Below are positions 53,524-61,245 of a stretch of 64,000 nucleotides of DNA, piece by piece (positions within the stretch are counted from its first letter, which is position 1; each line of letters starts with the position of its first letter). Under the pieces are notes generated by a model, which saw only the letters and a program-made list of their open reading frames with translations, had not been told where the DNA came from and did no database searches. The stretch is from an uncultured Cellvibrionales bacterium (GTDB lineage: Bacteria; Pseudomonadota; Gammaproteobacteria; Pseudomonadales; Porticoccaceae), in NCBI GenBank assembly GCA_913044275.1, contig CAJWMT010000002.1:1579-65578 (forward strand), given 5' to 3'. Both the position numbers and the translations under genes were made by a program.

Positions 53524-54972
53524 TTAGTCAGAGGACAACCATCTCTCGGTAATAGTTTTTTATAGTATACAATCTCACGCCATTCGGGCCATAGGCAGCA
53601 AGATCACCAAATCGGGAATCCTTCCACCCACCAAAGCTATGGTTCGCTGCAGGCACTGGAAGCGGAACATTAATTCCTACCACTCATCCTGAATGCCGCT
53701 CGCAAACTGTCGGGCTGCATGTCCATCTCGAGTAAATATACTTGCATCATTCCCACATGGATTTACGTTGACTATTTCTAGGGCTTCTGGGGCTGTTTCG
53801 GCGCGCATGAGGCAAAGTACGGGTCCAACATTTCTTCCTGTTAAATTCTCATACCGGTTTTGACATTGTCGAGGAGACATCCACCAAGAAAATATCTTGG
53901 CTGCTGGCAGCAGTTGTTTAGGCGGCCATCAACCAGCAGATAGGCGCCTTTACTAACCCCTGACTCAACTAAAGCGAGTATCTTGTCGAGTTGGACAGCG
54001 CTATTTATAGGTCCCATATCCAAATTCTGTCTTCCCGATCCTATAGTTAATCGGGCCACTTTATTGGCAAGCGTATTTGCCAGCTGATCACAGGTTTCTC
54101 GTCCGACAATAACGACTACCGATAATGCCATGCAATGTTGCCCGCAATACCCAGAAGCCGCGCCCACGATGGCATCTGAGATCATTTCCAGATCTGCACC
54201 GGGGTAGCACAATTGCGTGATTTTTGGCGCCACCAAGAGCTTGAAATGGCTTGCCACTTGTGCTTAAAACACTATAGATGGCTGTCGCGGCCGGAGTAGA
54301 ACCTACAAAACTTACGGCACTAATTTCCGGACATTGCATCAGTTTATCAGCTGTAGAAAGATCACTTTGAACCACATTGAGCACGCCCGCAGGCAAACCA
54401 GCCTCATGGAAGAGTTCCGCAAGGCGCAAGCTAGTGGAGGGACCCTTTTTGGATAATTTCAGTATAAAGGTATTTCCACAGGCTACTGCAAGTCGGAACA
54501 TCCATAAAGGCACCATAGCTGGGAAATTAAAAGGTGTGATACCCAAACAGATGCCTAGTGGGGCAAATTCACTCCACCTGCCTATATCTGGGCCAACTGA
54601 TTTGCTATGTTCACCCTTTAGATGCTCTGAGATACCATATGCGTACTCAATATTTTCGAGGCCTCGACCTGGCTCGCCCTTGGCATCTTCCATAGTCTTG
54701 CCGTGCTGTTTTGTAATAATTGAGCAGATTTCGTCGCTATTGGCGGCTATGAGTAAGTGGTATGCCAAGATGATCCTGCCTCTTTTGGCCGGATGAATAG
54801 CAGACCATGCTGGAAATGCGCGTCTGGCAGAGTTCGCTGCCTGCGCTATAATCTCATCGTCCCCCTTTTGGGTTAATGGCTACCTGCTCTCCATTGGATG
54901 GATCATACACAGGGAGTGTGTAGGTTTTCGCTGAGACCGTGCGGCCCCGATGAAATGGTTTATTTTTTTCAA
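53524..54972 (-). pseudogene. mmsA: CoA-acylating (methyl)malonate-semialdehyde dehydrogenase pseudogene with multiple frameshifts
   Basis: Fragments in shifting frames: KKINHFIG / LPVYDPSNGE / AFPAWS..ITPFNFPAMVPLW..SFVGST..QALGGAKNHAIV / GQHCMA..MGP / GPVL..IFTRDG / [20 protein letters not shown] / KTITERW. Confidence 0.9.
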
Positions 54973-59091: not shown

Positions 59092-59610
59092 TTACTTTGT
59101 TAGTGCTCTAATTATATCATCCACTATTAGATCCGCTTTGTTTCTTATCTCTTCATTTGAGGCGTTTTGGATGGGATGCTGAACAAACACGCATTTCGCA
59201 TCTCTCATGCCCAATGCTTCCGATTGGCTATGGGCGGCAGAAATAAATTCCGATGAAGCTATGGTCACTGCCGGTTTCCCTTGCATTTCAAACCATATCG
59301 TGTCATGCAAACTGCATGACGTACAGGATCCTCAATCAGCTAAGGCCTCGATTACGAAATGGTAATCTTCATTAATTTCTTGCCGCAAGCTGTCTGGCGC
59401 TGGTCTAGAAAATGTCGGTTTGAAGAACCTAGTGAATTTAATCGATGGCAGTCTCTCAGAAAAATTCTCCTCTAATCGATCCAATAGAATATTACCCTTG
59501 GGTTTCGATATATCAAGAAGAGCTATATTGCCCTCTATAACACTCGTTCGACGTGCTAGTTGTCGCCCGACAGGGAGTGATTCGTTTGTTGGGTCGAGAA
59601 TTATTGTCAT
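59092..59610 (-). CDS. UGSC-family selenoprotein, 172 aa, Sec93 (ORF track splits it into 59332..59610 and 59092..59310)
   Basis: Minus strand reads GAG GCC TTA GCT GAT TGA GGA TCC TGT ACG TCA TGC AGT TTG CAT GAC = EALAD-U-GSCTSCSLHD; both halves are in frame and a hairpin follows the UGA. Confidence 0.92.
59302..59320 (-). promoter_or_regulatory. Bacterial SECIS element
   Basis: mRNA GUCAUGCA-GUU-UGCAUGAC: perfect 8-bp stem with a GU-containing apical loop, starting 11 nt after the UGA. Confidence 0.85.
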
Positions 59611-59658
59611 AATTTAGTCCTCCGCAGACATATATTAATCTATCACTAATAAAAAAAG

Positions 59659-61245
59659 CTAAATGGATTCGATTTTCCGTGAGACTGGCAGTGAGCCCCA
59701 TTTTCCATTTAGCCAACCATGATAGCAGCCAGTGAACTTGCCTGCTCCGCTGCCTGCTACAACAATATTTATGTCACTCTCATCGGCAAACTTAGAGACG
59801 GGCATATCCATTGTCTCTCTGGATAGGCTCAAAATTTCCTCCGGACGCAGTCCCGCGCTGGAGATATCATCTGGGATAAGATCTCTATAGCTTAAGCGAG
59901 TAATCTCTTGGATTCTTCTGCGCAAATCCTGCTTGGAAAAACCATCTTTTTTAAACAAGTCTGCGTGCTCAGGAGATACCACCAAAACGCATTGAGCCAC
60001 GCCATACACTTTGTGGTTTAGAATAGATCTGACTCCCTCAGCAATAGTGCCAGCGACACGTTCACTCTCAAGACCATATTCATCTATTATTACTGTCGGG
60101 CCGCTTGTCACTGCGCATACAGTTACGACTGATTCATCGGCCCTGAACCCTCGTTCAACATGGAGTGGTTGCCAAGGAGAGCGTTCTTCCCACTCAGCGA
60201 AGCAGCCCGTGTATTTCAGGGGGTTACCAAAAGTAGAACGCTCTGTACCCTCTGGTTTAGCCCCCCCAACGTTTCGGATTATGAGTCGAACAGCCCTTCC
60301 AATTGTTGCATTAGCTCGGTTGCCTTGGCCAAGTGCTCCTTGCTTATAGTTCATGCCTATCTTGTCTCGAATAGGACCGCTGACTATCAAGAGAGGGCTT
60401 GCGCCCAAAGTTGTTGCATAAACACCATGGATATTGAAAGCTTCATCGGAGAGTGCTTCGAGCGCGCCGATTATAACGGGTAGATAATCAGGTTTGCAGC
60501 CAGCCATTACGGAATTGATTGCAATTTTTTCTACAGTCAAAGTTCCCATATTTGGGGGCATAACCGCTACAATTTCACTAGGGTCACGTTCAGTTCCGGA
60601 GAGCATTTTGATTACTCTTTCCTGTGTCGGAGGAACCAAAGGGAGGCCATCCGAAAACCCCTGGTCATACATGAATTCAAAGGCATCATCAGCGCTACCC
60701 AATTCAATCTTTCTGGCGCTAATTCTGCTAGCCTCAGATATTGCTCTCAAACGGGAGCTATTGATCGGGTCGGCCGATAATGATCCGCAACCAGGACGCC
60801 ACTCGGGGAAATCATGCCAATCGATAATATCCTTGGTTGGGTTTTTTATAATATGTTTTACGAGCTGTTTCCAGTCATCTTTCACAAAACCCGCCAGTTT
60901 TCTTAGAATATAACCATCTTCACATACCGCAATTATTGTGGGAACAATTTCGATGTCCAATGCATAAGATACAAGCAATTCGCTATCATCGAGAATTTGA
61001 AAAGCGGGCTTATGCAGGTCGTTAAGGCGCTGATTGACCGAGAAATCCTGCGCGATCACATGCATTACAATATTACTTGAGAGACTTTTATGAAGAGCCT
61101 CGAGGAGGGGGGTTATTTCTTTGCAGGTTGGGCAATCCTCTTTTATAAAACAGATTAATGCTTGTTTGCCACGCGGAGAAGTAATTGGTTCACCGAAAAG
61201 ATTAAACAATTCATATGTTTTAAGTTTTTGCATGCAGCGGCTCAA
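59659..61245 (-). CDS. Thioredoxin/redoxin (CxxC) domain fused to an uncharacterised domain; partner of the UGSC protein (start possibly ATG 61233)
   Basis: FIKEDCPTC, IEIVPT, WRPGCGS; core DGLPLVPPTQERV, EKIAINSVMAGC, GNRANATIGRAVRL; ends 48 nt upstream of the UGSC gene. Confidence 0.85.
   Translation of the reverse strand: MSRCMQKLKTYELFNLFGEPITSPRGKQALICFIKEDCPTCKEITPLLEALHKSLSSNIVMHVIAQDFSVNQRLNDLHKPAFQILDDSELLVSYALDIEIVPTIIAVCEDGYILRKLAGFVKDDWKQLVKHIIKNPTKDIIDWHDFPEWRPGCGSLSADPINSSRLRAISEASRISARKIELGSADDAFEFMYDQGFSDGLPLVPPTQERVIKMLSGTERDPSEIVAVMPPNMGTLTVEKIAINSVMAGCKPDYLPVIIGALEALSDEAFNIHGVYATTLGASPLLIVSGPIRDKIGMNYKQGALGQGNRANATIGRAVRLIIRNVGGAKPEGTERSTFGNPLKYTGCFAEWEERSPWQPLHVERGFRADESVVTVCAVTSGPTVIIDEYGLESERVAGTIAEGVRSILNHKVYGVAQCVLVVSPEHADLFKKDGFSKQDLRRRIQEITRLSYRDLIPDDISSAGLRPEEILSLSRETMDMPVSKFADESDINIVVAGSGAGKFTGCYHGWLNGKWGSLPVSRKIESI

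Follow-up and report, generated by a model that had tools for sequence, protein, structure and literature searches.

A predicted UGSC-family selenoprotein split by its in-frame TGA, and its near-constant upstream partner, in an uncultured Porticoccaceae bacterium

Two ORFs form one gene, very probably read through TGA

The window analyzed here is a 64,000-nt stretch of contig CAJWMT010000002.1 from an uncultured Porticoccaceae bacterium. Under translation table 11, its minus strand contains two ORFs in one frame, a 92-aa ORF that ends in TGA (59332-59610) and a 72-aa ORF (59092-59310). Reading TGA as U joins them into a gene of 172 codons plus TAA (59092-59610, minus strand), with ATG at 59610, the end of the TAA at 59092, and a Shine-Dalgarno-like GGAGG, read from the sequence, 8 nt 5′ of the ATG (59619-59623, minus strand). 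The 172-aa product has a single U at position 93, in the context ...EALAD-U-GSCTSCSLHDTIWFEMQGKPAV..., and the TGA codon for the predicted Sec (59332-59334, minus strand) opens the motif U-G-S-C-T-S-C within D-U-GSCTSC-SLHD. An earlier note on this DNA, which gave no strand, had proposed that the two ORFs are one UGSC-family selenoprotein gene that gene callers would record as two. The continuous minus-strand frame and the full-length family match bear this out: the read-through protein matches NF041046, "UGSC family (seleno)protein," at 157.2 bits (cutoff 125) over residues 28-171 and PF24696 at 143 bits (cutoff 25) over residues 4-171, both across the UGA, and it matches no other Pfam or NCBIfam model. 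U93-G-S-C96 lies at the family position of the U/C-G-S-C motif. The two "hypothetical" ORFs are thus one member, and an ordinary one, of a cataloged family, identical to NF041046/PF24696 in its whole-length match, its U-G-S-C motif, and its marine context.

The gene was compared with 80 related loci, kept from 92 found in a genome collection and 44-91% identical, that come from Gammaproteobacteria, Alphaproteobacteria, Actinomycetes, Rokubacteria, and others, i.e., from several phyla; its closest named relatives are marine Porticoccaceae metagenome-assembled genomes (MAGs). Codon 93 is TGA in all 80 loci and is the sole stop inside each match. Among the best 120 of 204 database relatives, 117 terminate exactly at ...ALAD, before codon 93, which is the split that the earlier note had foreseen. 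The other three show W, W, and R at the site, and the W in relatives P0002 and P0003 is probably the product of a code-4 gene call. Across the full-length relatives among the best 150 of 3584 representatives, Cys occupies the Sec position in 126 of the 135 aligned rows that span the site, a count in which Sec-annotated records, if any, may appear as C. The expectation in the earlier note that homologs would carry Sec or Cys at position 93 was borne out by these rows, by the 80 TGA loci, and by five loci with TGY in a genome sample of the order. G94, S95, and C96 are invariant across 48 aligned sequences. Codon changes relative to locus L005 are balanced equally on both sides of the TGA, with synonymous to non-synonymous counts of 32:19 before it and 28:16 after it. 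In a comparison with 4 of 15 listed RNA runs, contigs from two studies span the TGA with the codon unchanged at 95-99% identity (X2, 59232-59485; X5, 59230-59601); these are assembled contigs making up small shares, with no silent control stretch alongside.

TGA is an ordinary stop in the source genome, where it ends 483 of 1512 open frames of at least 200 codons. An alternative code in which TGA encodes Trp or Gly was ruled out, since TGA is a common stop and long table 11 ORFs cover about 80% of the genome. Because the matches to NF041046 and PF24696 run across the UGA and codon 93 is TGA in 80 of 80 loci, the open frame beyond the TGA is not a matter of chance, and we infer that UGA93 is almost certainly decoded as selenocysteine.

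A SECIS-like hairpin follows the UGA

A SECIS-like hairpin with an 8-bp stem and a GUU loop (59302-59320, minus strand) starts 11 nt past the UGA and contains a conserved 6-bp core (59304-59318). The codon of the third Cys of the motif, Cys99, falls within the stem. Across 81 sequences, codon use in the hairpin region is frozen, with Cys99 encoded by TGC in 81 of 81 and Ser100 by AGT in 76 of 76. At 59 other conserved positions, by contrast, no single codon has a share above 0.85. In 38 sequences picked for diversity from the 81, 99% of the cells in the 6-bp stem pair, compared with at most 69% in slid controls. One stem pair varies among G-C, G-U, and A-U, four pairs are unvarying, and one is broken in two sequences. 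Change on both sides was seen in one of the six pairs, a level reached by 12 of 500 shuffles, and covariation support for the hairpin is thin. The 80-nt fold of the window's own sequence after the UGA gave a z of only −1.65. The loop G, an expected feature of a bacterial SECIS hairpin, is invariant in the conserved 6-bp hairpin. Promoter and terminator scans returned signals close to shuffle levels.

The TGA form is found with the selenocysteine machinery

The presence of selA, selB, selC, and selD in the same genome, proposed in the earlier note as a check, was confirmed: selA, selB, tRNA-Sec (selC), and selD all score over their cutoffs in the source genome (G000), which is 87% complete. The first three lie together on contig C29, which does not carry the window's UGSC copy, and selD is of the Cys type and is split across two contig ends. 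A second match to the tRNA-Sec model (contig C79, 753-841, minus strand) scores 46.7 bits against a gathering score of 47 and is probably an ordinary long-arm tRNA. In a sample of 201 genomes of the order, 16 encode a PF24696 protein above cutoff; three matches below cutoff and one partial match (L115) were left out of the counts. The TGA form is found in 11 of these genomes, all 11 with selA, and the Cys form (TGT/TGC) in five, none with selA, against a background of selA in 18 of 201; related genomes do not count as independent cases, and one of the genomes with the Cys form has a completeness of only 75%. Both UGSC and selA are absent from four other genomes of the window's own family (f1) in the sample, so the selenium trait is patchily distributed among near relatives of the source genome.

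Among the 80 loci, selA lies within 5 kb in 26 and selB in 25. The linked loci that were inspected have the order selA-selB-selC-partner-UGSC, sometimes followed by Ndh-selD and mnmH, and the linked loci belong mostly to close kin (Sulfitobacter, Hyphomonas, and Caulobacterales). In L016, L022, L024, L030, L031, L039, L044, and others from Sulfitobacter, Hyphomonas, and relatives, selA-selB-selC lies directly 5′ of partner-UGSC, and where an Ndh-selD fusion and mnmH close the series, the whole forms a compact selenium cassette.

A thioredoxin-fused partner lies directly upstream

Overlooked in the earlier note was a near-constant upstream neighbor. In the window this partner gene (59659-61245, minus strand) encodes up to 528 aa and ends 48 nt before the UGSC start. 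The N-terminal domain of its product (residues ~1-137) is a TlpA/ResA-like thioredoxin with a CPTC motif (Z 17, rmsd 2.2 over 132 residues). It shares this fold and the CxxC with TlpA/ResA/DsbE-type proteins but scores below their curated cutoffs, is fused to a 350-aa domain, and is absent from some partners. The C-terminal domain of ~350 aa belongs to no Pfam or NCBIfam family. In its stretch AINSVMAGCKPDYLPV it is very similar to Sulfitobacter and Hyphomonas rows in the published alignment of the UGSC/Unknown_1 fusion (PMC2398784 Fig. S1A), and this sequence likeness identifies it as "Unknown_1." The parts of the two family papers available to us report this fusion rather than the near-constant two-gene unit (PMC2398784, PMC1976440).

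In 74 of the 80 loci the partner gene lies directly upstream and ends no more than 124 nt before UGSC begins. Of the six partnerless loci, L025 lies at a contig end, L053 holds half a gene, and four are related alphaproteobacterial loci (L059, L061, L064, and L069; U-GSCTTCCTHD) with no Unknown_1 in the available flanking DNA. L053 (4700-5267), from a close Porticoccaceae MAG, retains only UGSC residues 84-172 just past the end of a DUF4340 gene, and its missing partner and N-terminal half reflect either a deletion or a mis-assembly. In the order sample the partner adjoins all 21 full-length UGSC copies, including the Cys forms and a second pair in the source genome. That second pair (contig C29, 2-1412; L086) consists of a UGSC paralog with AYGH-U-GSCTTG, 28% identical and truncated at the contig start, and of an Unknown_1 gene behind it that encodes no thioredoxin domain; the pair lies ~9.6 kb from selA-selB-selC. 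All 15 proteins of at least 290 aa among the best 150 of 3584 representatives are UGSC-Unknown_1 fusions, with Unknown_1 behind the UGSC domain in 14 and in front of it, in pieces, in one.

Paralogs within a genome are far apart, at 23-28% identity for UGSC and 33-38% for the partner, and sequence comparison indicates that the pair duplicates together. UGSC and partner identities correlate over 21 pairs (rho 0.80), which is no evidence of contact because neighboring genes are co-inherited anyway. Among the 74 partners, 58 match the N-terminal thioredoxin query and 5 more can be aligned to it starting near residue 30; the domain is lacking in 7, and contig ends truncate the other 4. The thioredoxin domain is therefore optional, whereas Unknown_1 is always kept. 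Across 45 aligned Unknown_1 domains, D199, G200, P202, P206, E351, and R317 are invariant or nearly so, T278-T279 and H427 are present in 42-44, Cys250 in 38, and Cys348 in 37. The 45 domains have no conserved Thr-Cys cleavage site of the kind found at T420-C421 in PrdA (PMC11229817), and the partner gave no hit to PF09338, the family of pyruvoyl proproteins.

The Atlas returned only unnamed clusters for Unknown_1, one of them with 16% UGSC-fused members. Both fold searches with the 528-aa partner model were filled by the thioredoxin domain, so the Unknown_1 fold cannot be called new, and the PDB search with the partner gave only thioredoxins among the best 60 of 129 rows. The partner and the sel genes are the only frequent neighbors across the 80 loci, and neighbors point to no substrate. 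A downstream SDR gene was considered as part of the unit and rejected, its cluster occurring in only 9 of the 80 loci. Elsewhere in the window (53677-54768, minus strand), a putative aldehyde dehydrogenase gene, presumably of the methylmalonate-semialdehyde type judging by eye, is spread over three overlapping frames and represents either a pseudogene or sequencing errors.

The predicted fold of UGSC is flavodoxin-like

An AlphaFold2 model of UGSC built from 48 sequences is one compact domain across the Sec site (pLDDT 92.6, pTM 0.87). By DSSP, it contains five alternating strand-helix units and no β-hairpin, and the Sec opens the helix that follows strand 3. In thioredoxins, the redox motif follows the first strand and the chain ends with a β-hairpin. 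The predicted fold is thus not of thioredoxin element order. Previous work groups UGSC with thioredoxin-like redox proteins and supposes a thioredoxin-like fold (PMC2398784, PMC13188914), whereas the model obtained here is flavodoxin-like. Foldseek placed azoreductases and flavodoxin domains on top (TM ~0.5, 9-16% identity in the top ten), and VIA gave a flat list of α/β sandwiches with a best Z of 10.8. That score was shared by chain H of the methyl-CoM reductase activation complex (rmsd 3.0, 127 aligned) and a de novo designed protein, with LacI-type domains also level with the top matches. No thioredoxin-fold entry was present among the best 50 VIA rows or the Foldseek matches listed, and PDB sequence and profile searches returned nothing significant (best E 1.4 and 0.27). 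Because the top matches are flat, at TM ~0.5, and tied with a de novo protein, the modeled fold is best described as a flavodoxin-like sandwich of a generic kind, to which no solved structure is closely related.

A possible distant likeness to the selenocysteine domain of GrdB and PrdB

The earlier note had likened the Sec site to that of GrdB, and this claim stood in part. What did not hold is membership of that family: the UGSC protein gave no match to PF07355 (GRDB) at E up to 0.1, and the search of the source genome (87% complete) found no PrdA/GrdE (PF09338) and no GrdA (PF04723), the further subunit of the glycine type. The PF07355 scan of that genome matched only a gene on contig C72 (L087, 793-1968, minus strand), which encodes a separate 391-aa PrdB-like selenoprotein with TGT-U-LLC and a C-terminal extension, and for which no solved relative was found for fold comparison. 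What held is the alignment of the Sec-bearing strand-helix-strand in register with PrdB-like proteins. A PrdB-like profile was built from seven loci and later extended with 31 full-length relatives among 120 listed; it consists of marine sequences, without the characterized clostridial enzymes. With shallow profiles, hhalign placed Sec on Sec at a probability of 14% (score 27.4, shuffled maximum 24.2). With deeper profiles (172 and 38 sequences), Sec again fell on Sec, at a probability of 69% and a pairwise E of 4.5e-5 over 67 columns, and the score of 36.0 exceeded the shuffled maximum of 20.2, the reversed score of 16.7, and the thioredoxin control of 12.6. UGSC-PrdB scores beat 50 of 50 and 60 of 60 column shuffles. 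The match is modest, and it suggests that UGSC may be distant kin of the PrdB-like proteins.

The third cysteine of the motif is a less general feature. U93-C96-C99 is kept in 81 of 81 close sequences, and UxxCxxC is the motif of GrdB/F/H (PMC6778437, PMC13188914). In the 135 wider rows, the third position is Cys in only 36, Trp in 49, Ala in 21, and Gly in 13, so UxxCxxC is a trait of a subfamily within UGSC and not of the whole family. The subfamily of the window's protein also has the spacing U-x-x-C-x-x-C-x-x-H. In UGSC, as in GrdB/F/H and PrdB, a hydrophobic strand leads into UxxC(xxC) and the next helix, an E-x-x-G-x-P/x-T-V strand comes after that, and an H/P-P motif lies late in the sequence; in both cases the Sec subunit is paired with a larger partner. 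The GrdB/PrdB enzymes reductively cleave a C-N bond in an amino acid. UGSC differs from them in being only 172 aa long and in having a partner that is not the pyruvoyl proprotein GrdE/PrdA.

Discussion

The simplest rival to selenocysteine is that the TGA is a true stop, in which case the gene would be a pseudogene with a nonsense mutation or would encode a pair of small proteins. The source genome often uses TGA as a stop, and the N-terminal half stands alone in 117 of the best 120 of 204 database relatives. Some premature release at UGA is to be expected in every selenoprotein. A stop retained in 80 of 80 loci over several phyla, with a strict link to selA, Cys homologs in one frame, and one compact predicted domain spanning the site, makes this reading scarcely credible. 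A role in handling selenium itself, with the pair assisting the sel genes in delivering, sensing, or detoxifying the element, would fit the linkage to selA and selB, the selA-selB-selC-partner-UGSC order, and the position of the second UGSC paralog near selA. However, five genomes without selA retain the Cys form and its partner, the window's copy is not on the selA contig, and machinery traveling with its selenoprotein explains the linkage equally well among loci that are mostly close kin; we regard such a role as quite improbable.

The remaining alternatives concern chemistry. UGSC could be a general antioxidant selenoenzyme, a peroxidase or thiol-disulfide oxidoreductase, with the partner acting only as its reductant or sharing its operon. 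In marine selenoproteins the redox motif is usually UxxC, UGSC has been listed with thioredoxin-like redox proteins (PMC2398784, PMC13188914), and the partner carries a real thioredoxin domain. This is unlikely given that the model lacks the thioredoxin element order, that the UGSC profile aligns with the partner's thioredoxin domain only at background (probability 0.3%), and that what every partner retains is the 350-aa Unknown_1, whose invariant Asp, Glu, Thr-Thr, and Arg and near-invariant His resemble an active site. Alternatively, Sec93, Cys96, and nearby Cys or His residues might ligate a metal or Fe-S cluster where UGSC meets its partner, without nucleophile cycling. The U-x-x-C-x-x-C-x-x-H spacing of the subfamily would suit such a site, and so would the joint top fold match, chain H, which from its size we infer to be Mmp7; in the methyl-CoM reductase activation complex, McrC and Mmp7 are subunits with Fe-S clusters (PMC12176620). 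The tie of chain H with a de novo protein and LacI-type domains indicates a common fold only. Most relatives have Trp, Ala, or Gly in place of the third Cys, and the codon of this residue falls in the hairpin stem. These points leave the cluster-binding reading improbable.

We favor a two-part reductase. SelB bound to the hairpin would deliver Sec-tRNA to UGA93, a step of which we are nearly certain, and UGSC and Unknown_1 very probably act as one unit. From its place where strand 3 gives way to the next helix, the Sec selenolate would then attack a small substrate held by the partner, for which we see a somewhat better than even prospect; the model is PrdB, whose Sec attacks the substrate held by PrdA (PMC11229817). 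Cys96 would resolve the adduct to give a selenenyl-sulfide, and the CPTC thioredoxin domain of the partner, or a free thioredoxin, would re-reduce it. Taken as a whole, this chain would make UGSC the selenium-bearing catalytic half of a reductase completed by the upstream thioredoxin-fused protein, with no pyruvoyl subunit, an interpretation by analogy that we consider modestly probable.

For the gene itself, what has been gained is a corrected annotation. Of wider interest is the family, which is abundant yet largely uncharacterized. UGSC has been in print since 2007-2008: it was named as a selenoprotein of unassigned function (PMC1976440), ranked fifth in abundance among selenoprotein families in the GOS survey, with 255 genes in 37 samples (PMC2398784 Table 2), and has also been tabulated elsewhere (PMC9312934, PMC13188914, PMC7539508). 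A 2026 review still places it among largely uncharacterized proteins (PMC13188914). The literature searched, which covered few subscription papers, yielded no functional study of UGSC, though one may be in print. The two-part reading narrows the search, in that UGSC would best be assayed with its partner and not alone as a thioredoxin-like peroxidase, and natural single-chain fusions together with cultured carriers such as Sulfitobacter type strains make it easy to test. More tentatively, and at rather less than an even chance, UGSC may be a stripped-down flavodoxin-fold relative of the GrdB/PrdB Sec domain. With Unknown_1 replacing the pyruvoyl subunit, it would make up a thioredoxin-driven reductase, widespread among non-clostridial bacteria of water and soil, whose reaction splits a small organic substrate; some lineages would then carry the whole Sec machinery as a cassette mainly for this enzyme.
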